A DNA stretch of 64,000 bases from NCBI RefSeq assembly GCF_050320075.1, contig NZ_CP190018.1. One strand, 5' to 3'. The position numbers and the translations under genes are program-made. Origin of the DNA: Escherichia coli (GTDB taxonomy: Bacteria > Pseudomonadota > Gammaproteobacteria > Enterobacterales > Enterobacteriaceae). This document shows, piece after piece, positions 13,251-35,049 of the stretch (the first letter of the stretch is position 1; each line of letters starts with the position of its first letter). A model generated the notes under the pieces. It worked only from the letters and a program-made list of their open reading frames with translations. It did no database searches and was not told where the DNA came from.

Positions 13251-16200
13251 TTATTTCCGTACCCGATGTCGGTGCAGCCACATCAGCTTATATGCCGCCG
13301 GGATAATAAACAGCGATAGCAAAGGCGCGGTGATCATGCCGCCAATCATCGGCGCGGCAATCCGGCTCATCACCTCTGAACCTGCTCCCGTTCCCCACAG
13401 AATCGGCAGCAGACCAGCGATAATCACCGCCACCGTCATCGCTTTCGGGCGCACGCGCAGGACCGCGCCGTGATACAACGCCTCATCCAGCTTCTGCTCG
13501 CTGAATGTTTGCGGATTATTCAACGACGGCTCGGCCTCTATGGCGTGACGTAAATACATCAGCATCACCACGCCAAATTCGGCGGCAACCCCGGCGAGGG
13601 CAATAAAACCGGTGCCCGTCGCCACGGAAAGATGAAAGCCCATCCACCACAGCAACCAGATGCCGCCCACCAGCGCAAACGGTACGCTGCTGATAATCAG
13701 CAACGCTTCGCCCACCCGACGGAACGCCAGATATAACAGCACGAAGATGATCATCAGCGTCATCGGCACCATGAGTTTCAGCTTATGGTTGGCGCGTTCC
13801 AGTAGCTCGAACTGCCCGGAGAATGCCACGCTGGTGCCCGGTTTTAACTGTACTTTTTCAGCTATCGCTTTTTGCAGATCGTGAACCACCGACACCATGT
13901 CACGATCGCGGGCATCGATATAAATCCAGCTCGTCGGGCGCGCATTCTCGGTTTTCAGCATCGACGGTCCGGTAGAGACTTTAACGTCGGCCACGTCTGC
14001 CAGGGTGATTTGCTGCTTCATCGGCGTCAGGATCGGCAACTGGCGCAGCGCCTGCGGACTATCGCGCCAGCTTTGCGGATAACGCAGATTAATTGGATAA
14101 CGGGCAATCCCTTCCACCGTTTCGCCAACCATCGCCCCGCCCACCGCAGAAGTCACAAACAATTGCACATCCGCCACCGTCATACCGTAACGCGCGGCTT
14201 TTTCACGGTTAATCTCAACGTTGATATAGCGCCCACCTTCCAGACGCTCAGCAAGCGCAGAAGCTACGCCTGGCACCGTTCGTGCCACTTCTTCAATTTG
14301 CTCAGCCATCGCGTCGATATCCGCCAGCACAGTACCGGAAACTTTAATGCCGATGGGGCTTTTAATGCCAGTCGAGAGCATATCGATACGGTTACGAATT
14401 GGCGGCACCCACAGATTCGCCAGCCCCGGCAGCCGCACGGTGTTATCCAGTTCCTCGATGATTTTGTCCATCGTCATGCCTGGCCGCCACTGCTCTTGTG
14501 GCTTAAGCTGGATGGTCGTTTCTACCATCTCCAGCGGAGCAGAATCGGTGGCGGTTTCCGCTTTGCCGGTTTTGCCAAATACCCGCGCCACTTCAGGTAC
14601 GCTCATAATCAGCTTGTCGGTTTTTTGCAGCATAATCGCCGCCTCTGCTGCGGAAATCCCCGGCAGCGTCGATGGCATATACAACAAGTCACCTTCATTG
14701 ATCTGCGGTAAAAACTCCCCGCCAACTTTATTGAGCGGCCAGAGAACCGTCAGCACCGAAAGCGCTGCCACCAGCAGCGTGGTTTTCGGCCAGTGCAGTA
14801 CTTTCAGCAACAGCGGATGATAAACACGAATCAAAAAGCGATTGAGCGGGTTACTGCTTTCCGGCGGAATTTTGCCACGGATCCAGTAGCCCATCAGGAT
14901 AGGGATCACTACGATCGCCAGCAGCGCCGCACCCGCCATCGCATACGTTTTGGTGAACGCCAGCGGGCCAAACAGACGCCCTTCCTGCCCTTCCAGGGTG
15001 AAGATCGGGATAAACGACAACGTGATAATCAGCAGACTGATAAACAGCGCCGGCCCCACTTCAACAGATGCATCGGTGATCACCTGCCAGCGCGTTTTAT
15101 TATCCAGCGTGGCGTCAGGATGCTGGTGCTGCCACTCTTCCAGCCGTTTATGCGCATTCTCGATCATGACGATAGCGGCATCGACCATCGCCCCGACGGC
15201 AATAGCAATACCGCCCAGCGACATAATATTGGCGTTCAGTCCCTGAAAGTGCATGACAATAAAAGCAATACACAACCCCAGCGGCAACGAAATAATCGCC
15301 ACCAGCGCCGAGCGCACATGCCAGAGAAACAGCGCACAGACTACCGCCACCACAATAAACTCTTCCAGCAACTTGCCGCTGAGGTTGTCGATGGCGCGGT
15401 CAATGAGCTGGCTGCGATCGTATGTTGTAACTATCTCCACGCCTTCCGGCAGACTACTTTTCAGCGTTTCCAGTTTGTCTTTCACGGCGGCGATCACTTC
15501 TCGGGCGTTTTTGCCGGAGCGCAGGATCACCACCCCGCCCGCCACTTCGCCTTCGCCGTTCAGTTCGGCAATGCCCCGGCGCATTTCCGGGCCAATCTGG
15601 ACCTTCGCAACATCACGCAGATAAACGGGCACGCCATTTTCACTGGCTTTTAAAACGATGTGATTAAAGTCGTCGAGCGTTTGCAGATAGCCGCTGGCTC
15701 GCACCATATATTCCGCTTCCGCCAGTTCGATCGACGAACCGCCCGCTTCCTGGTTTGAAGCATCCAGCGCGCTTTTTACTTCGGCGAGACTGATGCCATA
15801 TTGCGCCAGGCGCTGAGGATCGATAACCACCTGATACTCTTTCACCACACCGCCTACCGACGCCACTTCCGCAACGTCAGGAATGGTTTTCAGCTCATAT
15901 TTGAGAAACCAGTCCTGCAATGAGCGTAAATCGGCCAGATCGTGCTTACCGCTGCGATCCACCAGTGCATATTCATAGATCCAGCCAACACCCGTGGCAT
16001 CTGGCCCCAACTCGGCGCTGACTCCCGCAGGCAGCTTACCCTGTACCTGGTTGAGGTACTCCAGCACCCGCGAGCGCGCCCAGTACGGATCGGTGCCATC
16101 TTCGAAAATGACATACACATAAGAGTCGCCAAACTGCGAAAAACCGCGCACAGTCTTCGCGCCAGGCACCGACAACATGGTGGTGGTTAGCGGATAAGTC

Positions 16201-20223: not shown

Positions 20224-21661
20224 GCCATTTCAGCGCCCGTTTTCGCTGGCAACCCGCCTGACCTTTTTTATCAGCCTGGCCACCATCGCGGCGTTTTTCG
20301 CCTTTGCCTGGATCATGATTCACTCGGTAAAAGTGCATTTTGCTGAGCAGGATATTAATGATTTAAAAGAGATTAGCGCCACACTCAAGCGCGTTCTTAA
20401 TCATCCCGAAGAGACACAAGCCCGACGCTTAATGACGCTGGAAGATATCGTCAGTGGTTATTCCAATGTGTTGATTTCCCTGGCAGATAGCCAGGGTAAA
20501 ACGGTGTATCACTCCCCCGGTGCGCCGGATATCCGCGAGTTTACGCGTGACGCCATACCCGATAAAGACACGCGGGGCGGCGAGGTGTATCTCCTTTCCG
20601 GCCCGACGATTATGATGCCGGGCCACGGTCACGGGCATATGGAACACAGCAACTGGCGGATGATTAACTTGCCGGTTGGCCCGTTGGTGGACGGCAAACC
20701 GATTTATACGCTCTACATCGCGCTTTCGATCGATTTTCATCTTCATTACATAAATGATTTGATGAATAAACTTATTATGACCGCATCGATCATCAGCATC
20801 CTGATCGTCTTTATCGTGCTGTTGGCGGTACATAAAGGTCACGCACCGATCCGCAGCGTCAGCCGTCAAATCCAGAACATTACCTCGAAAGATCTCGACG
20901 TTCGCCTTGACCCGCAGACCGTGCCGATTGAGCTGGAACAGCTGGTACTGTCGTTCAACCATATGATCGAGCGTATTGAGGATGTCTTTACTCGCCAGTC
21001 CAATTTCTCAGCGGATATCGCTCACGAAATTCGTACACCAATTACGAATCTCATAACGCAAACCGAAATCGCCCTCAGCCAGTCACGCAGCCAGAAGGAG
21101 CTGGAAGATGTGCTCTACTCTAATCTCGAAGAGCTGACGCGAATGGCGAAAATGGTCAGCGATATGCTGTTTCTCGCCCAGGCCGATAACAACCAGCTAA
21201 TCCCCGAAAAGAAAATGCTCAACCTGGCGGATGAAATCGGCAAAGTGTTCGATTTTTTCGAGGCGCTAGCGGAAGATCGCGGCGTGGAACTGCGGTTTGT
21301 TGGTGACGAGTGTCAGGTTGCGGGCGATCCGCTGATGCTGCGTCGGGCGTTAAGCAACCTGCTTTCGAACGCCCTGCGTTATACGCCGCCCGGAGAGGCG
21401 ATTGTAGTGCGCTGCCAGACGGTCGATCACCAGGTGCAAGTTTCCGTCGAAAACCCCGGTACGCCCATTGCGCCCGAGCACTTACCGCGATTGTTTGACC
21501 GTTTCTACCGCGTTGACCCCTCCCGCCAGCGAAAAGGCGAAGGTAGCGGTATTGGGCTGGCGATAGTGAAATCGATTGTTGTCGCGCATAAAGGCACGGT
21601 TGCAGTAACGTCAGATGCTCGGGGGACAAGGTTTGTGATTATGCTGCCGGAGAGAGAGTGA
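20213..21661 (+). CDS. cusS: Copper-sensing histidine kinase
   Basis: ORF 20201..21661; start at [16 protein letters not shown]...; H-box ([12 protein letters not shown]) and ATPase motifs; overlaps cusR stop. Confidence 0.95.
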
Positions 21662-22397
21662 TTATTAAGTTCAAATTCAGGGCGTGGTGCATCACCTCCT
21701 GGTATTGTTGATCAACAAATTAGAGAAAAACTTATTAAACATATGAAATATCGAAGGCTTTTATTTTTCAAAGTTTCACGAGATGTTTGTATATGAAACT
21801 TAGTTAAATCTGTGTTTCTTCCAATTGTAGATCACAATGCCCTTTCTAAATTTTCATCGTTATAAACAAGCCATCTATCATATAAAGCAATGAATAATTT
21901 AATCGCGATTAATCATCATTAATTGTTATATTATTCACTCAATCTATTTATCAAGTGAATTTGATAAATTCCTAATTTAAAATATCCACTATTGAGCCAG
22001 TATTTAACAACGTTAAGATGTGCAATGTGCAGATCATGTTATCAGGGTGGAGCGGTAGCATATATTTCTTATGCAATCATTCATTTTAATAATGTTAATT
22101 GGATTATTTATTGCTGTGAATAAAAATATATTATGAATATTGGTTTAACTTTGCGTTTTTGTTACTCGTTGTGATATGCGTACCTGTCCTGAATAACGCC
22201 AAGAAACAAGAGGTTGAGCTTGTGATTATTTTTTTGACTGAACAGACACCCGTTTCTGTAAAGTAATATTTAAACAAAATTCTCACATAACCATAGCATT
22301 TTCTGTTCCTTCCCTAATAACGTCTGAAGTCGTCCCGCTTATCACATTATCCGCAGTTGTACGGTACGGATCATTATTCATTTTACTGGAGGTTGCT

Positions 22398-24299
22398 ATG
22401 TCAACCGGATTACGTTTCACACTGGAAGTGGACGGCCTGCCGCCGGATGCTTTTGCGGTGGTTTCCTTTCATCTGAACCAGTCACTCTCTTCGCTCTTTT
22501 CCCTCGATCTCTCCCTGGTCAGCCAGCAGTTTCTCTCCCTTGAATTTGCGCAGGTGCTGGACAAAATGGCCTACCTGACGGTATGGCAGGGCGATGACGT
22601 ACAGCGCCGGGTGAAAGGCGTGGTGACCTGGTTTGAACTCGGGGAGAACGACAAAAACCAGATGCTGTACAGCATGAAGGTGCACCCGCCGCTGTGGCGT
22701 GCCGGTCTGCGCCAGAACTTCCGTATCTTCCAGAACGAGGACATCAAAAGCATCCTCGGCACGATGTTGCAGGAAAACGGGGTGACCGAATGGAGTCCGC
22801 TGTTCAGCGAGCCGCATCCTTCCCGTGAGTTTTGTGTCCAGTACGGTGAGACTGATTACGATTTCCTGTGCCGGATGGCGGCGGAGGAAGGCATCTTCTT
22901 TTATGAGGAGCATGCTTACAAAAGTACCGACCAGAGCCTGGTGCTGTGCGACACAGTCCGCCATCTGCCCGAATCTTTTGAAATCCCATGGAACCCGAAC
23001 ACCCGTACCGAGGTGAGCACCCTCTGCATCAGCCAGTTCCGCTACAGCGCACAAATCCGCCCTTCTTCCGTGGTGACCAAAGACTACACCTTTAAACGCC
23101 CCGGCTGGGCCGGACGTTTTGAACAGGAAGGCCAGCACCAGGACTACCAGCGCACGCAGTATGAAGTGTATGACTACCCCGGACGTTTCAAGGGTGCCCA
23201 CGGGCAGAACTTTGCCCGCTGGCAGATGGACGGCTGGCGAAACAATGCAGAAACCGCGCGGGGAATGAGTCGCTCGCCGGAGATATGGCCGGGACGACGA
23301 ATTGTGCTGACGGGGCATCCGCAGGCGAACCTGAACCGGGAATGGCAGGTGGTGGCAAGTGAACTGCACGGCGAACAGCCACAGGCGGTGCCAGGACGGC
23401 AGGGAGCGGGGACGGCGCTGGAGAACCATTTTGCGGTGATCCCGGCAGACAGAACATGGCGACCACAGCCGTTGCTGAAACCGCTGGTCGACGGCCCGCA
23501 GAGCGCTGTCGTGACAGGACCGGCAGGCGAGGAAATCTTCTGCGACGAACATGGTCGCGTGCGGGTGAAGTTCAACTGGGACCGCTATAACCCGTCAAAC
23601 CAGGACAGTTCGTGCTGGATCCGTGTGGCACAGGCGTGGGCAGGCACCGGTTTTGGCCACCTGGCGATACCGCGTGTGGGTCAGGAGGTGATTGTAGACT
23701 TCCTCAACGGCGATCCGGACCAGCCGATCATTATGGGGCGCACCTACCACCAGGAAAACCGCACCCCCGGCAGCCTGCCGGGAACAAAGACGCAGATGAC
23801 CATCCGCTCCAAAACGTACATGGGCAGCGGATTTAATGAGCTGAAGTTTGATGATGCGACAGGGAGAGAACAGGTCTACATCCACGCGCAGAAGAACATG
23901 GATACCGAAGTGCTCAACGACCGTACCACCACCGTAAAACACGATCACCACGAAACCGTAAAAAATGACCAGACGGTCACGATCCAGGAAGGTAACCGCC
24001 TTCTTACGGTGGAAAAAGGCCACAAGATCACCGGAGTACTGAAAGGGTCTTTATCTGAGGATGTCTTTCAGGACAGAGGCACGATTGCCGGTTCGGTGCA
24101 TGTTGACGCTGTAAACAATGGTGGCGAAGGCGACGGTATACAGGCTTATACGGCGATTAAGGAAATTTTGCTGGCCGTGGAGGAAAGCAAAATTGCGCTG
24201 ACGCCGGATGGCATTCAGCTACAGGTCGGGGAATCGACGGTAATCAGGCTGTCGAAGGATGGCATCACCATCGTGGGCGGTTCTGTTTTCATCAACTGA
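22398..24299 (+). CDS. vgrG: Type VI secretion spike protein VgrG (gp27/gp5-like)
   Basis: 633-aa ORF MSTGLRFTLEVDGLPPDAFAVVSFHLNQSLSSLFSLDLSLVSQ... typical VgrG N-terminus; GGAGG RBS 7 nt upstream. Confidence 0.9.
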   Translation: MSTGLRFTLEVDGLPPDAFAVVSFHLNQSLSSLFSLDLSLVSQQFLSLEFAQVLDKMAYLTVWQGDDVQRRVKGVVTWFELGENDKNQMLYSMKVHPPLWRAGLRQNFRIFQNEDIKSILGTMLQENGVTEWSPLFSEPHPSREFCVQYGETDYDFLCRMAAEEGIFFYEEHAYKSTDQSLVLCDTVRHLPESFEIPWNPNTRTEVSTLCISQFRYSAQIRPSSVVTKDYTFKRPGWAGRFEQEGQHQDYQRTQYEVYDYPGRFKGAHGQNFARWQMDGWRNNAETARGMSRSPEIWPGRRIVLTGHPQANLNREWQVVASELHGEQPQAVPGRQGAGTALENHFAVIPADRTWRPQPLLKPLVDGPQSAVVTGPAGEEIFCDEHGRVRVKFNWDRYNPSNQDSSCWIRVAQAWAGTGFGHLAIPRVGQEVIVDFLNGDPDQPIIMGRTYHQENRTPGSLPGTKTQMTIRSKTYMGSGFNELKFDDATGREQVYIHAQKNMDTEVLNDRTTTVKHDHHETVKNDQTVTIQEGNRLLTVEKGHKITGVLKGSLSEDVFQDRGTIAGSVHVDAVNNGGEGDGIQAYTAIKEILLAVEESKIALTPDGIQLQVGESTVIRLSKDGITIVGGSVFIN

Positions 24300-24326
24300 T
24301 TCACTCAGATTATCAGGGAGTATTTT

Positions 24327-24788
24327 ATGCAGTTCACTTTTAATGAAGGCCACATTCAACTGCCGTCTCAATGGCAGGATCAGTCAATGCAGGTCCTGGT
24401 GTCCACAGATAACAGTGGCATCAACCTGGTCATTACCCGCGAAGCCGTTCCACAGGGAACCCTGACACCAGAGCTGTACCAGGAAACGCTGGCGCTGTAC
24501 CAGGGCAAACTTGATGGGTACACCGAACATGCCTGCCGGGAAATCACTCTGGCAGAGGCCCCGGCCTGGCTGCTGGATTATTCCTGGAACGGTCCGGAAG
24601 ATGAGGGGAATCAGGGGCGGATTAGCCAGATAGCCGTATTCCAGCGGCGTGGAGATACGCTGCTGACCTTCACTTTCAGCACCTCCTTATCCCTGAAGAA
24701 CAGTCAAAAGACGATGCTGCTGGAGGTGATAAAGAGCTTCACCCCGTTGCCACCGGAGAATGACATCCAAAAGGACCAGCCGCGCTGA
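24327..24788 (+). CDS. DUF1795-family (Eag-type) effector-associated chaperone
   Basis: 153-aa ORF immediately between vgrG and a prePAAR-Rhs gene; size and position match Eag chaperones; family assignment from memory of the sequence class, not from a search. Confidence 0.65.
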   Translation: MQFTFNEGHIQLPSQWQDQSMQVLVSTDNSGINLVITREAVPQGTLTPELYQETLALYQGKLDGYTEHACREITLAEAPAWLLDYSWNGPEDEGNQGRISQIAVFQRRGDTLLTFTFSTSLSLKNSQKTMLLEVIKSFTPLPPENDIQKDQPR

Positions 24789-24807
24789 CATAAACGAGGG
24801 ATAACAC

Positions 24808-27800
24808 ATGAGTGAAGGACCAGGCGGGCCACAGGGAGCGACCGCAGGCGGTACGCTGGCAATGCGAATGCTGTCACAGCAGGCGATGGTCGCCAGCCAG
24901 ATGAAACGGGCAGCCAACGACAAAGCCATTGCACAGATGCTGGCATCAAAAAAGTCCGGCCCCCCCGCCGCCAGGCTGGGCGATGAAATTCAGCACAAGA
25001 GTTTTTTGGGGGCGCTGGCAGGGGCCGTGCTGGGGGCGATAGTGACCATCGCAGAAGGTTGCCTGATTATGGCCGCCTGTGCCACCGGCCCTTATGCGCT
25101 GGTTCTGGTGCCTGCGCTGATGTATGCCAGCTATAAGGCGAGTGATTATGTGGAGGAGAAACAGAACCAGCTTGAATCATGGATAAACAGCTTTTGTGAC
25201 ACGGACGGCGCCATCAATACCGGTTCTGAAAATGTAAACATTAACGGAAAGCCCGCTGCCAGGGCCGCCGTCACCCTTCCCCCTCCTCCCCCACCTGGAG
25301 CAATACCTGAAATCCCACAGGGGGAACCCTCATGGGGTGATATTGCCACTGACCTGCTTGAATCGGCAGCGGAAAAAGCAGTACCACTGGCGAAGGCCTG
25401 GGGGAACGCTGTTATCACCCTGACGGACAGCAATGCCGGTTTTATGGATCGCGTCAGCGCCGGCGCATCGCTTCTGTTTCCCGCCGGTCCGGTATTAATG
25501 GAGTTTGCCACCATGGTGGGCGGGCGTGGCGAAATCAAAAAAGATGTGGATTTCCCGGAAGCCGGTGAGGACACGGCGCTCTGCGACAAGGAGAACAAAC
25601 CACCGAGGATAGCCCAGGGCAGCAGCAACGTCTTTATCAACAATCAGCCCGCCGCGCGCAAGGGCGACAAACTGGAGTGCAGCGCGGCAATCGTGGAAGG
25701 TTCGCCGGACGTCTTTATTGGCGGTGAACAGGTGACCTATCTGGATATCCAGCCAGAGTTCCCGCCGTGGCAGAGAATGATCCTGGGGGGAATAACGATA
25801 GCCAGCTATCTTCTGCCGCCAGCGGGACTGCTGGGAAAACTGAAGAATCTGGCGAGACTCGGCAAACTGGGGAACCTGCTGGGGAAAAGCGGGAAGCTGC
25901 TGGGGGCAAAGCTCGGCGCGTTGCTGGGAAAAACAGGTAAGTCGTTAAAAAGTATTGCCAATAAAGTCATCAGATGGGTAACAGATCCTGTCGATCCGGT
26001 AACCGGCGCGTACTGCGACGAACGTACCGACTTTACGCTGGGCCAGACCCTCCCCCTCTCCTTCACCCGTTTCCACAGTTCTGTACTGCCGCTGCATGGC
26101 CTGACCGGCGTGGGCTGGAGCGACTCCTGGAGCGAATACGCCTGGGTGCGTGAACAGGGAAACCGGGTGGATATCATCAGCCAGGGAGCCACGCTGAACT
26201 TCGCCTTCGACGGTGACAGTGATACGGCGGTTAACCCGTATCACGCCCAGTACATTCTGCGCCGCCGCGATGATTATCTGGAGCTGTTCGACAGGGATGC
26301 ACTGAGCAGCCGCTTCTTTTATGACGCCTTTCCGGGAATGCGTCTGCGCCACCCGGTGACTGACGATACCAGCGATGACCGCCTGGCACACAGCCCCAAT
26401 GACCGGATGTACATGCTGGGCGGGATGAGCGACACCGCCAGCAACCGCATCACGTTTGAGCGCGACAGCCAGTACCGGATCACAGGTGTCAGTCACACCG
26501 ACGGGATCCGGCTTAAACTGACGTACCACGCCAGCGGCTACCTGAAAGCCATTCACCGCACGGATAACGGCATACAGACGCTGGCGACCTACGAACAGGA
26601 TGCGCGGGGGCGGCTGACAGAAGCGGATGCGCGGCTGGACTACCACCTGTTTTATGAGTACGACGCTGCGGACCGGATCATCCGCTGGTCCGATAACGAC
26701 CAGACGTGGAGCCGTTTCACCTACGATGAACAGGGCCGGTGCGTGAATGTCACCGGGGCGGAGGGCTATTACAACGCCACGCTGGACTATGGTGACGGCT
26801 GCACCACCGTGACGGACGGCAAGGGCATTCACCGTTATTACTATGATCCTGACGGCAATATTCTGCGGGAAGCAGCGCCGGACGGCAGCACCACCATGTA
26901 TGAATGGGATGAATTCCATCACCTGCTGGCCCGTCACTCCCCTGCCGGGCGGGTGGAGAAATTTGAATACAACGCCGCACACGGTCAGTTAAGCCGTTAC
27001 ACGGCGGCAGACGGCGCGGAGTGGCAGTACCGCTATGATGAGCGCGGCCTGCTCAGCAACATCACCGACCCTGCCGGGCAGACGTGGACACAGCAGTGTG
27101 ATGAACGCGGCCTGCCGGTAAGTCTGGTGTCGCCACAGGGCGAAGAGACCCGGCTGGCATACACCGCTCAGGGGCTGCTGTCGGGAATATTCCGCCAGGA
27201 TGAACGGCGTCTGGGCATAGAGTACGACCACCACAACCGGCCGGAAACACTCACCGACGTGATGGGCCGCGAACACCACACCGAATACAGTGGTCACGAC
27301 CTGCCGGTGAAGATGCGCGGCCCCGGCGGTCAGTCAGTGAGGTTGCAGTGGCAGCAGCACCATAAACTGAGCGGCCTTGAGCGCACTGGCACCGGCGCGG
27401 AAGGATTCCGCTACGACCGTCACGGCAACCTGCTGGCGTACACGGACGGTAACGGTGTTGTCTGGACAATGGAGTACGGCCCGTTTGATTTGCCGGTGGC
27501 GCGAACGGACGGTGAAGGCCACCGCTGGCAGTACCGCTACGATAAAGACACGCTGCAACTGACAGAAGTCATCAACCCGCAGGGTGAGTCATATCTTTAT
27601 GTTCTGGATAACTGCGGCCGGGTGACGGAAGAGCGTGACTGGGGCGGCGTGGTCTGGCGTTACCGTTATGATGCCGATGGCCTGTGTACCGCCAGGGTTA
27701 ACGGTCTGGAGGAAACCATCCTCTACAGCCGGGACGCCGCAGGCCGCCTGGCAGAAGTCATCACGCCGGAAGGCAAAACGCAGTATGCGTATGACAAATC

Positions 27801-29640
27801 CGGCAGGCTGACGGGTATCTTCAGCCCGGACGGCACATCACAGCGCACCGGCTATGACGAACGCGGGCGGGTGAATGTCACCACTCAGGGCCGACGGGCC
27901 ATTGAATACCACTACCCCGATGAACACACCGTCATCCGCTGTATCCTGCCACCGGAAGATGAACGCGACAGACACCCCGGTGAATCCCTGCTGAAAACCA
28001 CGTACCGCTACAACGCAGCCGGAGAACTGGCAGAGGTCATCCTGCCGGAGGATGAGACGCTGACGTTCAGCCGTGATGAGGCAGGACGTGAAGTGCTCCG
28101 GCACAGTAACCGGGGTTTTGCCTGTGAGCAGGGCTGGAATGCAGCCGGTCAGCTTACCAGCCAGCGCGCCGGACTTTTCCCGGCGGAAGCCACATGGGGC
28201 GGACTGCTCCCCTCACTGGTGCGGGAGTACCGTTACGACAGCGCGGGCAATGTGTCGGCTGTCACCAGCCGGGAAGATTACGGACGGGAAACTCGCCGGG
28301 AGTACCGGCTGGACCGGAACGGCCAGGTCACGGCGGTGACAGCCTCAGGCACCGGGCTGGGCTATGGCGAAGGCGATGAGTCCTATGGCTATGACAGCTG
28401 CGGCTACCTGAAGGCGCAGTCTGCGGGCTGGCACCGGATAAGTGAAGAGACTGACCAGTATGCCGGAGGCCACCGGCTGAAACAGGCCGGAAACACGCAG
28501 TATGACTATGACGCCGCAGGCCGGATGGTCAGCCGCATAAAACACCGTGACGGCTACCGCCCGGAAACAGAGCGGTTCCGGTGGGACAGCCGTGACCAGC
28601 TGACCGGGTATTGCAGCGCACAGGGTGAACAGTGGGAATACCGCCACGACGCCAGCGGCAGACGGACGGAAAAACGCTGCGACCGGAAGAAAATCCGCAT
28701 CACGTACCTGTGGGACGGCGACAGTATTGCGGAAATCCGGGAATACCGCGATGATAAACTGTACAGCGTACGGCACCTGGTGTTTAACGGCTTTGAGCTG
28801 ATAAGCCAGCAGTGCAGCCGGGTACGGCAGCCGCATCCGTCCGTGGCCCCGCAGTGGGTGACGCGGACGAATCATGCGGTGAGCGACCTGACGGGCCGTC
28901 CGCTGATGCTCTTTAACAGTGAAGGTAAAACCGTCTGGCGACCGGGGCAGACCAGCCTGTGGGGGCTGGCACTCAGCCTGCCCGCAGACACCGGCTACCC
29001 GGACCCGCGCGGGGAACTGGACGCGGAAGCCGACCCCGGCCTGCTGTATGCAGGACAGTGGCAGGATGCGGAATCCGGGCTGTGCTATAACCGGTTCCGG
29101 TATTACGAGCCGGAAACAGGGATGTACCTGGTGAGTGATCCGCTGGGGTTGCTGGGGGGTGAGCAGACTTACCGGTATGTGCCGAATCCGTGTGGGTATG
29201 TTGATCCGCTGGGATTAGCATTTTGCCCCAGAATGCAGAAGACATTGCAAAAATTAACTGACAAGGCTGTTGCTGATATTATCGCTAACCCCAGACTCGC
29301 TGAAGATCTGATGTCGGCGGGGAGCTATGCACATTTAAAAAATGGAACTAATTTATATGCAGCCAGTTTTGGTAAGGCTGTTGAACGTAGGGTTGCACAG
29401 TTAGTTAGTGACAATTCCCGATTAAGCAAACTTGTTGAACATACTGGTCAGGCCAAGGGGGCTAATGGACAGTTTATATCGAGCCCTGACTTCACCACTA
29501 AAGGTAAAGGCGTGTTCGACGTTACAACAAATAAAGCACTCCAAGCGCATATAGACAGATATACTAAAGCTGGTGTGTATACTCCCTATAATGATATTGG
29601 TTACTTGGTATATGATGTCGTATATGGATTATCTTTCTAA
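24808..29640 (+). CDS. rhs: prePAAR/PAAR-domain Rhs polymorphic toxin (T6SS effector) with C-terminal toxin domain
   Basis: 1610-aa ORF; N-terminal AARLGDEIQH (prePAAR AARxxDxxxH), hydrophobic TM segments, PAAR-like segments (NINGKPAAR, FINNQPAARKGD), long YD-repeat region, Rhs core ending PCGYVDPLGL (PxxxxDPxGL) at 29188-29217, followed by ~141-aa low-GC C-terminal domain. Confidence 0.9.
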   Translation: MSEGPGGPQGATAGGTLAMRMLSQQAMVASQMKRAANDKAIAQMLASKKSGPPAARLGDEIQHKSFLGALAGAVLGAIVTIAEGCLIMAACATGPYALVLVPALMYASYKASDYVEEKQNQLESWINSFCDTDGAINTGSENVNINGKPAARAAVTLPPPPPPGAIPEIPQGEPSWGDIATDLLESAAEKAVPLAKAWGNAVITLTDSNAGFMDRVSAGASLLFPAGPVLMEFATMVGGRGEIKKDVDFPEAGEDTALCDKENKPPRIAQGSSNVFINNQPAARKGDKLECSAAIVEGSPDVFIGGEQVTYLDIQPEFPPWQRMILGGITIASYLLPPAGLLGKLKNLARLGKLGNLLGKSGKLLGAKLGALLGKTGKSLKSIANKVIRWVTDPVDPVTGAYCDERTDFTLGQTLPLSFTRFHSSVLPLHGLTGVGWSDSWSEYAWVREQGNRVDIISQGATLNFAFDGDSDTAVNPYHAQYILRRRDDYLELFDRDALSSRFFYDAFPGMRLRHPVTDDTSDDRLAHSPNDRMYMLGGMSDTASNRITFERDSQYRITGVSHTDGIRLKLTYHASGYLKAIHRTDNGIQTLATYEQDARGRLTEADARLDYHLFYEYDAADRIIRWSDNDQTWSRFTYDEQGRCVNVTGAEGYYNATLDYGDGCTTVTDGKGIHRYYYDPDGNILREAAPDGSTTMYEWDEFHHLLARHSPAGRVEKFEYNAAHGQLSRYTAADGAEWQYRYDERGLLSNITDPAGQTWTQQCDERGLPVSLVSPQGEETRLAYTAQGLLSGIFRQDERRLGIEYDHHNRPETLTDVMGREHHTEYSGHDLPVKMRGPGGQSVRLQWQQHHKLSGLERTGTGAEGFRYDRHGNLLAYTDGNGVVWTMEYGPFDLPVARTDGEGHRWQYRYDKDTLQLTEVINPQGESYLYVLDNCGRVTEERDWGGVVWRYRYDADGLCTARVNGLEETILYSRDAAGRLAEVITPEGKTQYAYDKSGRLTGIFSPDGTSQRTGYDERGRVNVTTQGRRAIEYHYPDEHTVIRCILPPEDERDRHPGESLLKTTYRYNAAGELAEVILPEDETLTFSRDEAGREVLRHSNRGFACEQGWNAAGQLTSQRAGLFPAEATWGGLLPSLVREYRYDSAGNVSAVTSREDYGRETRREYRLDRNGQVTAVTASGTGLGYGEGDESYGYDSCGYLKAQSAGWHRISEETDQYAGGHRLKQAGNTQYDYDAAGRMVSRIKHRDGYRPETERFRWDSRDQLTGYCSAQGEQWEYRHDASGRRTEKRCDRKKIRITYLWDGDSIAEIREYRDDKLYSVRHLVFNGFELISQQCSRVRQPHPSVAPQWVTRTNHAVSDLTGRPLMLFNSEGKTVWRPGQTSLWGLALSLPADTGYPDPRGELDAEADPGLLYAGQWQDAESGLCYNRFRYYEPETGMYLVSDPLGLLGGEQTYRYVPNPCGYVDPLGLAFCPRMQKTLQKLTDKAVADIIANPRLAEDLMSAGSYAHLKNGTNLYAASFGKAVERRVAQLVSDNSRLSKLVEHTGQAKGANGQFISSPDFTTKGKGVFDVTTNKALQAHIDRYTKAGVYTPYNDIGYLVYDVVYGLSF
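27186..29217 (+). repeat. Direct repeat copy 1 (3' part of Rhs core, ~2.03 kb)
   Basis: Near-identical to 30384..32412 (visible by eye: ATTCCGCCAGGATGAACGGCGTCTGGGCATAGAGTACGACCACCAC... through ...GATCCGCTGGGATT). Confidence 0.9.
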
Positions 29641-29662
29641 AGCAAACTAATGGTAACTAAAT

Positions 29663-30373
29663 ATGACAAAAGTTCTTGAGAATGAAGAGTTCAATTCTAT
29701 ACATATAGACGAAGGTGGGGTTTTTAATAGTTTACGCTTTGAAAAATGTCTTTTTCAAAGCTGTAGCATACTTAGCAGAAAACTAAATGATAATAGTGAT
29801 TTACCTCCTCGCTTTGAAAACATTCTCATTAAAGATTGCACTGCTCTTAATTGTGTAAGTGGCCCAGCTTTTTTAAAAGATGTAACTGTTGAGAATTTTA
29901 GGACCGGTGATATTTTTCTTATTTATTCCACTATGTTTCATCATGTAACATTAAAAGGAAAGCTTGGGGCAATAAAAATAAATAAAAAAGATTATGTGCG
30001 TGACTATGATAGCCATCAAAGACATATTGAGATGATGAGAACGAGATTTTATTCTCAGATAGATTGGGCGATGGATATATCACAGGCGAAGTTTTTAAGT
30101 TTCTCCTGCAAAGGTATCCCAGCAAAATTAATTAGACGAGATAGTGAGACTCAATTTGTTGTAACGAGGAAACGTTTCAACTCTATGGATGTACTAAATG
30201 CAGAATTTAAAGGACAATACCCGTTTGTTTATTTACTGCTGGAGCTCTTTTTAGAATCAGATGAAGATGACCAGGTATTAGTTACACCATTAGGCAAAGC
30301 AAAAAAATATTATCAGCCAATTCTCGAAGGATTTAGAGAGTTAAGACGAGCAGGAATACTCGAACCTAACTAA
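29663..30373 (+). CDS. Putative cognate immunity protein of the Rhs C-terminal toxin
   Basis: 236-aa ORF starting 22 nt after the rhs stop, AT-rich codon usage unlike the Rhs core; position is the canonical immunity slot. No recognisable family. Confidence 0.6.
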   Translation: MTKVLENEEFNSIHIDEGGVFNSLRFEKCLFQSCSILSRKLNDNSDLPPRFENILIKDCTALNCVSGPAFLKDVTVENFRTGDIFLIYSTMFHHVTLKGKLGAIKINKKDYVRDYDSHQRHIEMMRTRFYSQIDWAMDISQAKFLSFSCKGIPAKLIRRDSETQFVVTRKRFNSMDVLNAEFKGQYPFVYLLLELFLESDEDDQVLVTPLGKAKKYYQPILEGFRELRRAGILEPN

Positions 30374-30383
30374 ATAAGGGTTA

Positions 30384-32412
30384 TATTCCGCCAGGATGAA
30401 CGGCGTCTGGGCATAGAGTACGACCACCACAACCGGCCGGAAACACTCACCGACGTGATGGGCCGCGAACACCACACCGAATACAGTGGTCACGACCTGC
30501 CGGTGAAGATGCGCGGCCCCGGCGGTCAGTCAGTGCGCTTACAGTGGCAGCAGCACCATAAACTGAGTGGCCTTGAGCGCACTGGCACCGGCGCGGAAGG
30601 ATTCCGCTACGACCGCCACGGCAACCTGCTGGCCTGGACGGACGGTAACGGTGTTGTCTGGACAATGGAATACGGCCCGTTTGATTTGCCGGTGGCGCGA
30701 ACGGACGGTGAAGGCCACCGCTGGCAGTACCGCTACGATAAAGACACGCTGCAACTGACAGAAGTCATTAACCCGCAGGGTGAGTCATATCTTTATGTTC
30801 TGGATAACTGCGGCCGGGTGACGGAAGAGCATGACTGGGGCGGCGTGGTCTGGCGTTACCGCTATGACGCCGATGGCCTGTGTACCGCCAGGGTCAACGG
30901 CCTGGAGGAAACCATCCTCTACAGCCGGGACGCCGCAGGCCGCCTGGCAGAAGTCATCACGCCGGAAGGCAAAACGCAGTATGCCTATGACAAATCCGGC
31001 AGGCTGACGGGTATCTTCAGCCCGGACGGCACATCACAGCGCACCGGCTATGACGAACGCGGGCGGGTGAATGTCACCACTCAGGGCCGACGGGCCATTG
31101 AATACCACTACCCCGACGAACACACCGTCATCCGCTGTATCCTGCCACCGGAAGATGAACGCGACAGACACCCCGGTGAATCCCTGCTGAAAACCACGTA
31201 CCGCTACAACGCCGCCGGAGAACTGACGGAGGTCATTCTGCCGGGGGATGAGACGCTGACGTTCAGCCGTGATGAGGCAGGACGTGAAGTGCTCCGGCAC
31301 AGTAACCGGGGTTTTGCCTGTGAACAGGGCTGGAATGCAGCCGGTCAGCCTGTCAGTCAGCGCGCCGGACTTTTCCCGGCAGAAGCCACATGGGGCGGGC
31401 TGCTCCCCTCACGGGTACGGGAGTACCGTTACGACAGCGCGGGTAATGTGTCAGGCGTCACCAGCCGGGAAGATTACGGACGGGAAACACGGCGGGAATA
31501 CCGGCTGGACCGGAACGGCCAGGTCACGGCGGTGACAGCCTCAGGCACCGGGCTGGGCTATGGCGAAGGCGATGAGTCCTATGGCTATGACAGCTGCGGC
31601 TACCTGAAGGCGCAGTCTGCGGGCTGGCACCGGATAAGTGAAGAGACTGACCAGTATGCCGGAGGCCACCGGCTGAAACAGGCCGGAAACACGCAGTATG
31701 ACTATGACGCCGCAGGCCGGATGGTCAGCCGCATAAAACACCGTGACGGCTACCGCCCGGAAACAGAGCGGTTCCGGTGGGACAGCCGTGACCAGCTGAC
31801 CGGGTATTGCAGCGCACAGGGTGAACAGTGGGAATACCGCCACGACGCCAGCGGCAGACGGACGGAAAAACGCTGCGACCGGAAGAAAATCCGCATCACG
31901 TACCTGTGGGACGGCGAAGTATTGCGGAAATCCGGGAATACCGCGATGATAAACTGTACAGCGTACGGCACCTGGTGTTTAACGGCTTTGAGCTGATAAG
32001 CCAGCAGTTCAGCCGGGTACGGCAGGCGCATCCGTCGGTGGCCCCGCAGTGGGTGACACGGACGAATCATGCGGTGAGCGACCTGACGGGCCGTCCGCTG
32101 ATGCTCTTTAACAGTGAAGGTAAAACCGTCTGGCGACCGGGACAGACCAGCCTGTGGGGGCTGGCACTCAGCCTGCCCGCAGACACCGGCTACCCGGACC
32201 CGCGCGGGGAACTGGACCCGGAAGCCGACCCCGGCCTGCTGTATGCAGGACAGTGGCAGGATGCAGAATCCGGGCTGTGCTATAACCGGTTCCGGTATTA
32301 CGAGCCGGAAACCGGGATGTACCTGGTGAGTGATCCGCTGGGGTTGCTGGGGGGTGAGCAGACTTACCGGTATGTGCCAAATCCGTGTGGGTGGGTTGAT
32401 CCGCTGGGATTG
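30384..32412 (+). repeat. Direct repeat copy 2 (orphan Rhs core fragment)
   Basis: See copy 1 at 27186..29217. Confidence 0.9.
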
Positions 32413-32865
32413 GCTGCAAGTTCTAAAATCAGCAGTTTGATGGACTATATTGGCGATGGTCGTCGTGTTAGTGGGCATACGGGTTTCCTGGATGGGGTTC
32501 GTTTATCACGTAGTCAAATAAACAATATTGCTAAAGAAATGGAGAAGCTAGGAATTAAAGTAATAAGGAAAGCAGATAAATATTTGCCACCAAATGCTAG
32601 GGCAGCTTTTGATTATGGCCTTCGCAATATTTATCTTAGGAAAAATGCTACCTTATATGAGGTGTATCATGAAGTGATTCATGCTAAGCAATTTGCGAAA
32701 ATTGGACGAGAAGCATACGAAGCACTAGGACGTTTATCTAGGGAGGAACACGTTCTAAATGAAATATTAAAAAGTAAAAATTTATTCAATGAGGCGGAAA
32801 TAGCTCATGCCATAAAATATGTTGAGGGATTGAGAGAAAAATTCATGATGGGACTAATAAATTGA
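30384..32865 (+). pseudogene. Orphan Rhs core-fragment + alternative C-terminal toxin domain, frameshifted
   Basis: Repeats the 3' 2 kb of the rhs core; 1-bp deletion near 31917 (GGCGAAGTATTGCGG vs GGCGACAGTATTGCGG in the main copy) splits it into ORFs 30455..31996 and 31828..32865; ends DPLGL (32398-32412) + divergent ~150-aa CT containing HEVIH. Confidence 0.8.
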
Positions 32866-33113
32866 TAAAACATAACAAAATAACTATCGAAATGGCTCTT
32901 GACTTGGCTCGGCGTGAGTTAGAGTTAAGGGAAATTCCTTATATTAAAAATAGTCTACATGCCAATTACAGCTATAAATCTATTAGTATTGGTTCTAAGC
33001 AAGGTTGGTTAATTTCAGCGAAATTAAAAGTCCCTGAAACTTTTGAGCCTGATATGATATTTATTGAGATATCTGACCCAGAAGGTTTTATTAATATTCC
33101 TGATGTATTATAA
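32862..33113 (+). CDS. Putative immunity protein for the orphan Rhs-CT
   Basis: 83-aa low-GC ORF overlapping the orphan CT stop; start codon uncertain (TTG in ORF track). Confidence 0.45.
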   Translation: MIKHNKITIEMALDLARRELELREIPYIKNSLHANYSYKSISIGSKQGWLISAKLKVPETFEPDMIFIEISDPEGFINIPDVL

Positions 33114-33309
33114 ACTACGTTAGAGGTTTTGTTATAAGGTAATCGGTTTCTTTACAGACCGCTGGCGTACATCGCACAGAGGCTGCTAACAGGGATATTC
33201 CTGCCTGGATGAACGCAAGGCAAGATCATGGAAATAGTGATATACATCACTATTTCCATCCTGATTTTAGCTATCGCATTAATAAAACAGCGGATGTTAG
33301 CCAATATCG

Positions 33310-33500
33310 AAACCAGTAACCCGTATCACGCCCAGTACATCCTGCGCCGCCGCGATGATTACCTGGTGCTGTTCGACCGTGATGCCCTGAGCTGCCGCTT
33401 CTTTTATGACGCCTTTCCGGGAATGCGTCTGCGCCACCAGGTGACCGGCGATACCGACGATGACCGCCTGGCACACAGCCCCGCAGACCGGATGTATACA
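33310..33500 (+). pseudogene. Vestigial Rhs core fragment
   Basis: NPYHAQYILRRRDDYLVLFDRDALSCRFFYDAFPGMRLRH... matches main rhs at ~26228..26420; embedded in ORF 33228..33539 with unrelated flanks. Confidence 0.7.
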
Positions 33501-33579
33501 GGGAAAGATCATCAGAAGTACACTTTTTGTACTAAATAATTCACATTTTATGTTTAAAAATTGAGATATTCCTCATTAC

Positions 33580-34800
33580 CTGAAGCTGTTTTTTATTGCT
33601 TATACATGATCAAATACTCCTTACATAATTAAGGAGAACAAAATGGAACTTAAAAAATTGATGGAACATATTTCTATTATTCCCGATTACAGACAAGCCT
33701 GGAAAGTGGAACATAAATTATCGGATATTCTATTGTTGACTATTTGTGCCGTTATTTCTGGTGCGGAAGATTGGGAAGATATAGAGGATTTTGGGGAAAC
33801 ACATCTCGATTTTTTGAAGCAATATGGTGATTTTGAAAATGGTATTCCTGTTCACGATACCATTGCCAGAGTTGTATCCTGTATCAGTCCTGCAAAATTT
33901 CACGAGTGCTTTATTAACTGGATGCGTGACTGCCATTCTTCAGATGATAAAGACGTCATTGCAATTGATGGAAAAACGCTCCGGCACTCTTATGACAAGA
34001 GTCGCCGCAGGGGAGCGATTCATGTCATTAGTGCGTTCTCAACAATGCACAGTCTGGTCATCGGACAGATCAGGACGGATGAGAAATCCAATGAGATTAC
34101 AGCTATCCCAGAACTTCTTAACATGCTGGATATTAAAGGAAAAATCATCACAACTGATGCGATGGGTTGCCAGAAAGATATTGCAGAGAAGATACAAAAA
34201 CAGGGAGGTGATTATTTATTCGCGGTAAAAGGAAACCAGGGGCGGCTAAATAAAGCCTTCGAGGAAAAATTTCCGCTGAAAGAATTAAATAATCCAGAGC
34301 ATGACAGTTACGCAATGAGTGAAAAGAGTCACGGCAGAGAAGAAATCCGTCTTCACATTGTTTGCGATGTCCCTGATGAACTTATTGATTTCACGTTTGA
34401 ATGGAAAGGTCTGAAGAAATTATGCGTGGCAGTCTCCTTTCGGTCAATAATAGCAGAACAAAAGAAAGAGCCAGAAATGACGGTCAGATATTATATTAGT
34501 TCTGCTGATTTAACCGCAGAGAAGTTCGCCACAGCAATCCGAAACCACTGGCACGTGGAGAATAAGCTGCACTGGCGTCTGGACGTGGTAATGAATGAAG
34601 ACGACTGCAAAATAAGAAGAGGAAATGCAGCAGAATTATTTTCAGGGATACGGCACATCGCTATTAATATTTTGACGAATGATAAGGTATTCAAGGCAGG
34701 GTTAAGACGTAAGATGCGAAAAGCAGCCATGGACAGAAACTATCTGGCGTCAGTCCTTGCGGGGAGCGGGCTTTCGTAATCTTGCCCTGCCTGCTCACCT
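33580..34800 (+). mobile_element. H-rpt / ISAs1-family insertion sequence (approximate bounds)
   Basis: Transposase CDS 33643..34779; terminal inverted repeats not delimited by me. Confidence 0.5.
33643..34779 (+). CDS. H-repeat-associated protein / ISAs1-family transposase (H-rpt)
   Basis: 378-aa [63 protein letters not shown]... recognised as the H-rpt (YhhI/YdcC-like) transposase that accompanies Rhs elements. Confidence 0.85.
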
Positions 34801-35049
34801 CCTCCAGGCACTTCCACTACATGATGACCTGCTCGGTGCCACCGCTCCTTTTCACTATGACGTTAACCTCCCTGTCCCAGGACACCATGCTTTTGTCTAC
34901 ATTCTACGCAAACGGCAACTTTTATAACCAGTGTAAAAATAACGTGCCGCAATAGTCATACCTATTAATGGTAAAAAGCTGTCACAATTCATAAAAAACC
35001 TTAATATACGCCACCCTAAACATAACCAGCGTTAATGTAAGGTTTTTGT

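Follow-up and report, generated by a model that had tools for sequence, protein, structure and literature searches.

Positions 22398-30373 of a 64,000-nucleotide stretch of the Escherichia coli chromosome (contig NZ_CP190018.1, assembly GCF_050320075.1; hereafter the window) hold four genes, the third of which very probably encodes a class I prePAAR Rhs effector, produced from an orphan vgrG island together with an Eag-family chaperone and delivered, following the overall scheme described for its homologs, by a type VI secretion system (T6SS). An initial annotation, made from the sequence alone, had proposed a T6SS-delivered, Eag-paired prePAAR Rhs rather than a contact-dependent inhibition (CDI) or stand-alone Rhs protein. 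This proposal is supported by the profile matches of both proteins, the adjacent vgrG gene, the conserved gene order, the kinship with Rhs1/Tre23 of Photorhabdus laumondii and an island described in enterohaemorrhagic (EHEC) and Shiga toxin-producing (STEC) E. coli. The marks of CDI proteins (signal peptide with TPS domain, FHA repeats) were not found in NCBIfam and Pfam scans, the gene context being vgrG-eag; a CDI or stand-alone Rhs was rejected, since CDI domains were absent while PAAR, VgrG and Eag were all present.

The vgrG-eag-rhs island

22398-24299, + strand: VgrG spike protein of 633 aa, whose gene opens the island (NCBIfam TIGR03361, TssI/VgrG, E 5.7e-188)
24327-24788, + strand: Eag-family (DUF1795/DcrB-fold) chaperone, 153 aa (Pfam DcrB PF08786, E 1.7e-27)
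24808-29640, + strand: class I prePAAR Rhs effector (probable), 1610 aa (NCBIfam and Pfam)
29663-30373, + strand: candidate for the cognate immunity protein, 236 aa (placed directly behind the toxin; hypothetical protein in RefSeq)

All four open reading frames (ORFs) are intact, lie on the same strand and are closely spaced, with gaps of 27, 19 and 22 nt (19 nt between the end of eag and the rhs start codon), and eag and rhs each have a Shine-Dalgarno-like sequence ahead of the start codon (GGGAG upstream of the eag ATG). The vgrG gene, labelled T6SS tip protein VgrG in RefSeq and not listed in the initial annotation, is located directly upstream of eag, and the genes therefore constitute a vgrG-eag-rhs-immunity island. 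In a species-level scan (one genome per species) that returned 80 related loci, the Rhs gene had an Eag match directly upstream (61 such ORFs), as a rule preceded by vgrG, and the vgrG-eag-rhs order is kept in Xenorhabdus, Photorhabdus, Entomohabitans, Erwinia and more distant Proteobacteria.

The 153-aa protein had been assigned to the Eag (DUF1795) slot, and the PF08786 match, which spans 131 of its 153 residues, confirms this assignment; the same profile hidden Markov model was used by Ahmad et al. to find DUF1795/Eag chaperones (PMC7773334). Its top sequence match in the PDB is EagT6 (6xrf_A / 1tu1, E 1e-5), and it shares about 43% identity with the Eag ORFs of Photorhabdus loci; SciW was too divergent from it for phmmer detection at E <= 1. 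No signal peptide was found, as the N-terminus MQFTFNEGHIQLPSQ is devoid of a hydrophobic signal segment and the lowest Hessa-type sum is +12.3. Unlike the exported DcrB, the protein is thus predicted to be cytoplasmic and is encoded beside a prePAAR effector, as expected of an Eag chaperone.

The N-terminus of the Rhs protein

24808-24960, + strand: N-terminal extension, aa 1-51, predicted long helix (AlphaFold2 helix at aa 15-47)
24961-24996, + strand: prePAAR motif PPAARLGDEIQH, aa 52-63 (regular expression, Pfam prePAAR_I; AlphaFold2 pLDDT 96)
24997-25128, + strand: transmembrane domain region 1 (TMD1), aa 64-107, a pair of hydrophobic helices bearing the glycine zipper G68xxxG72xxxG76 (hydropathy, AlphaFold2)
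25198-25272, + strand: PAAR repeat 2, aa 131-155 (...NVNINGKPAARAAV) (Pfam PAAR_motif; AlphaFold2 pLDDT 96-97)
25570-25767, + strand: PAAR repeat 3 up to the end of the cone, aa 255-320, containing Cys259 and Cys291 (Pfam PAAR_motif; AlphaFold2 pLDDT 84-97)

NCBIfam assigned to the Rhs protein the YD repeat (E 7.6e-70, eight stretches), the Rhs-associated core (E 2.6e-18) and the PAAR domain (E 5e-11). A Pfam search with aa 1-420 returned prePAAR_I (aa 54-100, E 4e-5), PAAR_motif twice, at aa 266-310 (E 2.6e-10) and at aa 132-153 (E 0.006), and DUF6531, beginning at aa 393. The initial annotation had named the absence of PAAR or DUF1795 from profile searches of the two proteins as an outcome that would speak against it; both were found. 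The prePAAR motif that it had read, AARLGDEIQH, is placed at aa 54-63 (nt 24967-24996), where A55, R56, D59 and H63 are invariant in all 73 sequences of the locus alignment used for conservation counts, and A54 is present in 72 of them. The expression AARxxDxxxH was matched twice in the six-frame translation of the window, against 0.09 matches expected; the second match, at 14487 on the minus strand in the cusCFBA region, has no PAAR context and is a chance match, so that the proof lies in the profile results and not in the expression alone.

The split PAAR domain that had been suggested is likewise confirmed, by the two Pfam matches and by confidently modelled pieces: in an AlphaFold2 (AF2) model that covers aa 1-470 and draws on 56 relatives, aa 51-63, 131-155 and 255-320 reach a predicted local distance difference test score (pLDDT) of 84-97. 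PAAR tetrapeptides start at aa 53, 149 and 281, in the same frame and within 230 codons. A Foldseek search with this model retrieved the orphan PAAR proteins c1882 (4jiw_D) and VCA0105 at a target-normalised template modelling score of 0.66, the alignment spanning the insertion described below, as well as the Rhs plugs of 7pq5 and 8qjb (E 5e-4). The top PDB sequence match of the N-terminus is Rhs1/Tre23 (7pq5, E 9.6e-39), with an alignment that covers both prePAAR-TMD1-PAAR and PAAR-postPAAR-plug; in PAAR repeat 2 the alignment reaches up to residue 139 of Tre23. Both C259 and C291 are invariant among relatives.

Between the prePAAR motif and PAAR repeat 2, aa 63-107 are strongly hydrophobic (Kyte-Doolittle peak of 2.13 in a 19-residue window), with Hessa-type sums of -0.5 (aa 66-82) and +1.4 (aa 85-101), AF2 helices at aa 66-92 and 97-127, and glycines G72 and G76 that are nearly invariant among relatives. 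Beyond residue 450 no segment exceeds a Kyte-Doolittle value of 0.67. Judged from these values, aa 63-107 would be the sole convincing transmembrane region of the protein, as in class I prePAAR effectors. Of the two hydrophobic stretches that had been taken for membrane segments this first one stands, while the second (aa 324-343) is not a confident transmembrane segment. In the definition of Ahmad et al. (2020, PMC7773334), class I effectors are Rhs proteins whose single TMD region precedes PAAR; the E. coli protein presents the prePAAR motif, one such region before PAAR, a split PAAR, an Rhs cage and a length of more than 1000 aa.

The prePAAR motif begins about 50 residues into the protein, whereas in most other prePAAR effectors it is preceded by 2-9 residues and lies at residues 3-10. 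The extension is confidently modelled over aa 21-40 (pLDDT 88-93), and 30-50 residues precede prePAAR in relatives of the Tre23 clade (Photorhabdus/Xenorhabdus) as well.

The postPAAR region

25768-25836, + strand: postPAAR conserved hydrophobic helix, aa 321-343, WQRMILGGITIASYLLPPAGLLG (aligns with Tre23 WERAILIAVEFLVPPS)
25828-25983, + strand: postPAAR cationic Leu/Lys/Gly amphipathic region, aa 341-392 (composition, hydrophobic moment, Tre23-clade counterparts)

The second hydrophobic stretch and the Gly/Lys/Leu linker that the initial annotation had called unusual together represent the postPAAR region, since both align with that of Tre23: WQRMILGGITIASYLLPP of the E. coli protein aligns to Tre23 WERAILIAVEFLVPP, and the Gly/Lys/Leu stretch to a K/G-rich stretch. 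A helix was modelled at aa 320-335 (pLDDT about 82), and W321 and P337-P338 are conserved in the locus alignment. As a membrane segment aa 324-343 are marginal, with a Kyte-Doolittle value of 1.62, a Hessa-type sum of +4.9 and two prolines.

The Gly/Lys/Leu peptide lies where it had been reported (about 25828-25950), at nt 25828-25944. Its 48 residues (aa 341-388) comprise 14 Leu, 10 Lys and 9 Gly, with 11 basic residues and no acidic one, and no part of the protein has a stronger helical hydrophobic moment than aa 372-392. The term "tandem" holds for the peptide, which repeats a heptad-like LGKxGxL pattern, and not for the DNA: Tandem Repeats Finder found no repeat under it (24300-26400), and a slippage-type DNA repeat was rejected on this ground. 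The stretch is also less unusual than had been thought, as cationic K/R/G-rich postPAAR regions are present in Photorhabdus, Xenorhabdus and Erwinia relatives. When 56 relatives were compared, Escherichia, Erwinia, Photorhabdus, Xenorhabdus and others shared a short hydrophobic helix with a strongly cationic stretch, poor in acidic residues, behind it; another group of Rhs proteins instead carries a long hydrophobic, Gly-rich region after PAAR. The E. coli postPAAR is unusually rich in Leu, yet of a known type. In Tre23, EagR binds both TMD1 and postPAAR (PMC8636562).

It is rather doubtful that the Gly/Lys/Leu stretch is a mere flexible, low-complexity tether between PAAR and shell, with no role in binding or at membranes and a composition that is incidental. 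The low AF2 confidence over aa 340-380 (pLDDT 45-55) would fit such a tether, as would the length (48-108 residues) and sequence of the region, which vary widely among relatives. However, its cationic, acid-free character is kept across Escherichia, Erwinia, Photorhabdus and Xenorhabdus, its length does not vary in the sampled E. coli genomes (2292 records at 95-100% identity), and the isolated postPAAR of Tre23 was pulled down by EagR and cross-linked to the concave face of this chaperone (PMC8636562).

Somewhat less probable still is a dual-TMD effector resembling class II, in which aa 324-343 and the Gly/Lys/Leu helices would form a second membrane region and, with TMD1, a conduit for the toxin across the target's inner membrane. 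Class II effectors are proteins of about 450 aa with TMD regions on both sides of PAAR (PMC7773334). The hydropathy of aa 324-343, a glycine zipper (G366xxxG370xxxG374) combined with a strong amphipathic moment in aa 341-392, the binding of the Tre23 postPAAR by EagR as if it were a TMD (PMC8636562) and the long hydrophobic Gly-rich post-PAAR regions of some other Rhs representatives are in line with this option. Nevertheless, the hydrophobic core extends over only about 17 residues, broken by the two prolines, the rest of the region has a net charge of +11 and no long apolar run, and the Pfam match is to the class I prePAAR model. A protein of about 450 aa with no cage and a post-PAAR TMD bearing GxxxxGxxLxGxxxD is not what was found here. 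Moreover, the two to three helices of Rhs-type effectors have been argued to be unable to form a toxin pore and to act as "grease" at the spike tip (Ahmad et al., PMC7773334). A second TMD conduit is disfavoured.

The PAAR insertion and the missing zinc ligand

25273-25569, + strand: lineage-restricted insertion in the PAAR cone, aa 156-254 (about 99 aa) (alignment to Tre23 and relatives)

The wide split of the PAAR domain is due to an insertion of about 99 aa, a point missed by the initial annotation. At this site the E. coli protein is longer than Tre23 by about 97 residues (query aa 155 corresponds to Tre23 139, query aa 253 to Tre23 138). The insertion opens with PPPPPP, is acidic (14 Asp/Glu versus 6 Lys/Arg), contains 13 prolines and a moderately hydrophobic segment (aa 216-238), and its helices were predicted at low AF2 confidence. 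A word-indexed homolog search with aa 1-420 returned almost exclusively E. coli fragments, and cluster representatives were used for distant comparison. The loop between PAAR repeats 2 and 3 measures 8-23 aa in 71 of 77 such representatives and 12-20 aa in 67 of 72 related loci of the species-level scan. In these two sets a homologous long insertion (112-130 aa) was present only in Escherichia/Shigella, Erwinia tracheiphila, Entomohabitans teleogrylli and Serratia microhaemolytica. Its C-terminal half, including the moderately hydrophobic VSAGASLLFPAGPVLMEFATMVGG, is 40-50% identical across the four genera. Neither Pfam nor PADLOC gave a match for the insertion, and a literature search, whose incomplete coverage makes it weak evidence of novelty, returned no description of it.

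The insertion is followed by a second deviation. The His of the CxKH motif, present in 67 of 73 related sequences, is replaced by Glu262 in E. coli (LCDKEN, aa 259-263, 25582-25596), and all four insertion-bearing lineages lack it and read C(x)KE. The metagenome locus L005 has a Cys at this position. PAAR zinc ligands have been reported as three His/Cys residues in PAAR plus one from prePAAR, with the zinc near the tip of the cone (Ahmad et al., PMC7773334). Only H63, C259 and C291 are left of these four in the E. coli protein, a deviation within the family that is no ground for excluding it from class I. Given the lost His and this published ligand count, the metal site of the insertion-bearing subfamily may be altered, and given the position of the zinc, the insertion would leave the cone near its tip, as TMD1 does. 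A replacement ligand inside the insertion was considered and rejected, as no His or Cys is conserved there (GGHGG in Erwinia, GGRGE in E. coli).

At the position of this insertion a few other lineages carry unrelated ones, 44-83 aa long, and some of these contain a clear hydrophobic helix. Among them, two uncharacterised metagenome Rhs proteins (L005, 2884-7596; also proteins P0091 and P0099) have an unrelated insertion of 73-83 aa with the Gly-rich hydrophobic helix WFDKAVGAFIGGAKVAGTALLFGPVAAF. Since helix-bearing insertions of separate origin sit at this site, the PAAR loop may be a recurrent place for the addition of hydrophobic helices. We tentatively consider it possible that the insertion is a functional module which, together with the change from His to KE, defines a subfamily of class I not described before, with a "doubly split PAAR" and restricted to the four lineages. 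If so, it could add a third Eag-bound or membrane-active element, or could instead tune VgrG specificity or the stability of the tip.

The Rhs shell, the toxin and the candidate immunity protein

25984-26007, + strand: predicted site of N-terminal autocleavage, motif DPVDPVTG, with the cut after Pro394 and Asp393 as catalytic residue (aligned with Tre23 D288-P289-I290)
25984-26217, + strand: beginning of DUF6531 / N-terminal shell plug (Pfam match starting at aa 393)
29137-29217, + strand: two DPLGL motifs, aa 1444-1448 and 1466-1470, predicted C-terminal aspartyl autocleavage site (regular expression)
29218-29637, + strand: C-terminal toxin domain, aa 1471-1610, unnamed family

Two self-cleavage sites have been shown in Tre23, one after D288-P289 and one after the second DPLGL of a pair spaced 17 residues apart (PMC8636562), and counterparts of both were identified, as in Rhs toxins with double autoproteolysis of the Tre23, TseI and RhsA type. 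WVTD393-P394-VDPVTG aligns with the N-terminal site and carries its motif (Asp-Pro followed by xDxxTG) at the sequence level, P394 being conserved in 65 and D393 in 46 of the 73 sequences. The E. coli DPLGL motifs are exactly 17 residues apart, as in Tre23 and the Tc toxins (PMC8636562), and the NCBIfam match Rhs_assc_core (aa 1408-1470) ends at the second of them. The toxin domain probably has a PD-(D/E)xK nuclease fold; neither it nor the 236-aa protein had a match in Pfam, NCBIfam, PADLOC or PDB sequence searches.

Distribution and genomic setting

DNA encoding Eag and the Rhs N-terminus was found in 2152 of 5426 complete E. coli genomes (about 40%), at 95-100% identity and usually in a single copy; in O157:H7 genomes the identity is 97.4%. 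Full-length E. coli matches measure 1663-1664 bases over 2292 records, that is, the Gly/Lys/Leu stretch is constant in length. One N-terminus is joined to different C-terminal toxins in E. coli, as expected of a polymorphic toxin. A contig of 1154 bp labelled as a Collinsella sp. metagenome-assembled genome (L006, JAIJJM010000894.1) carries the Rhs N-terminus at 93% identity (best tblastn segment) and almost certainly represents E. coli contamination of the metagenome bin.

On the chromosome the island is located between cusRS (cusS side) and an orphan rhs pseudogene, ISEc1 and nfrB, and its 8-kb block is 100% identical to many complete genomes. No RNA family was found by an Rfam scan of 21000-35000, and a promoter scan upstream of vgrG gave chance-level signal only. 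The orphan rhs C-terminal fragment downstream (30383-32866), annotated in RefSeq as a pseudogene with a zincin-like metallopeptidase toxin whose N-terminus is missing, is broken into the window ORFs 30455-31996 and 31828-32865 and is followed by an ISEc1 transposase gene (33643-34779). Such an arrangement is the common one, with displaced toxin tips arrayed behind a main rhs gene.

Proposed mechanism and its weighing

In the producing cell, Eag dimers would cover TMD1 and probably the postPAAR helix, which would keep the N-terminus soluble. The prePAAR segment, supplying the first PAAR repeat and His63, would fold back on the two downstream repeats to form a zinc-bound cone that caps the cognate VgrG trimer, as the prePAAR-PAAR of Tre23 docks on the VgrG tip (PMC8636562). 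The Rhs shell would enclose the C-terminal toxin, with the chain cut on either side of the shell by Asp393-Pro394 and by the second DPLGL (Asp1466). Firing of the T6SS would then drive the spike, with hydrophobic helices at its tip, into a neighbouring bacterium, where the toxin, probably a PD-(D/E)xK-type nuclease, would be freed; the 236-aa downstream protein would protect siblings. This analysis computed the identities of the domains, the order of the genes, the conservation and a predicted fold for PAAR, whereas chaperone binding, VgrG loading, cleavage, delivery and toxicity follow homologs, with Photorhabdus Rhs1/Tre23, Salmonella Rhs1-SciW and Pseudomonas RhsA/Tse6 as models. The "membrane-translocating" property named in the initial annotation would in the same way be a model from the literature.

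Three points weigh against this scheme. No T6SS core genes are present in the 64-kb window; the island is for this reason called an "orphan" vgrG island, and its firing would need a cluster elsewhere. AF2 confidence is low for the insertion and most of the postPAAR region. Finally, because of the lost His and the large insertion, zinc binding and VgrG docking could differ from the models. That the cassette would be an inactive relic or T6SS-independent, for want of a matching T6SS in the strain or with its cone disabled by the insertion and the lost His, is very improbable: the missing core genes and zinc ligand and the neighbouring pseudogene and ISEc1 element would agree with it, yet the four ORFs are intact and closely spaced with Shine-Dalgarno-like sequences before eag and rhs, the module is kept at the identity given above in 40% of complete E. 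coli genomes, the C-terminal half of the insertion is conserved across genera, and the orthologous STEC island was reported to deliver its Rhs in an EagR-dependent manner (Ma et al. 2017, as cited in PMC7216683).

As a class I prePAAR effector, the annotated gene would mark a real interbacterial weapon present in about 40% of complete E. coli genomes, O157:H7 included. The annotation does not change existing knowledge, as prePAAR, split PAAR, Eag chaperoning, postPAAR and double autocleavage have all been published. The PAAR insertion with the lost zinc-ligand His may be the sole new detail, and a modest one. It shows an E. coli family that tolerates an insertion of 100 residues and the loss of a canonical zinc ligand in the spike-tip cone, and therefore offers a natural test case for the limits of the PAAR fold and of VgrG docking. 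For T6SS specialists the allele itself is of possible interest, given a C-terminal toxin that has no family model and an uncharacterised 236-aa immunity protein.

Comparison with known systems

Tre23 (PDB 7PQ5) is organised as prePAAR, TMD1, PAAR, postPAAR with a conserved helix, shell and toxin (Jurenas et al. 2021, PMC8636562). The E. coli system shares with it the gene trio vgrG-eag-rhs, the N-terminal extension and the same order of parts through to the toxin, as well as the postPAAR hydrophobic helix ending in VPP with its cationic stretch, the DP cleavage motif, the DUF6531 plug, the YD shell and the DPLGL pair. It differs in the insertion between the last two PAAR repeats and the absence of the CxKH His, in a postPAAR much richer in Leu, and in the toxin, which is unrelated to the ADP-ribosyltransferase of Tre23 and probably adopts a PD-(D/E)xK fold.

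With Rhs1-SciW of Salmonella Typhimurium and RhsA-EagR1 of Pseudomonas protegens (7Q97) it has in common AARxxDxxxH, one TMD region ahead of PAAR, a split PAAR that prePAAR completes, the Rhs cage and an adjacent Eag gene. In these proteins, however, prePAAR occupies residues 3-10, whereas in E. coli it lies about 50 residues from the N-terminus and PAAR is split twice. The term "split PAAR" was introduced for the supply by prePAAR of the missing first segment of the cone and of one zinc ligand, in a survey that included Escherichia and Shigella (PMC7773334).

The class II effector Tse6 of Pseudomonas aeruginosa, paired with EagT6, has the prePAAR motif, a TMD1 glycine zipper and the Eag chaperone as well. 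Unlike the 1610-aa, cage-bearing E. coli Rhs, class II proteins measure about 450 aa, have no cage and possess a clear second TMD after PAAR, where the E. coli protein has a short, marginal segment followed by a cationic stretch. The orphan PAAR proteins c1882 of E. coli (4JIW) and VCA0105 of V. cholerae (4JIV) also form a cone from three PAAR repeats, although they do so with about 95 contiguous residues and four His/Cys zinc ligands, compared to three segments over 270 residues in the E. coli Rhs.

The island vgrG1 (z0707)-eagR (z0706)-rhsF has been described in EHEC EDL933 (PMC7216683), the source that also cites Ma et al. (2017) for EagR-dependent PAAR-Rhs delivery in STEC, and it appears to be the same island as that of the window, with a C-terminal toxin and immunity protein that differ between strains. 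Since the EDL933/STEC island has been described, the system was already known, to the species and apparently to the locus.

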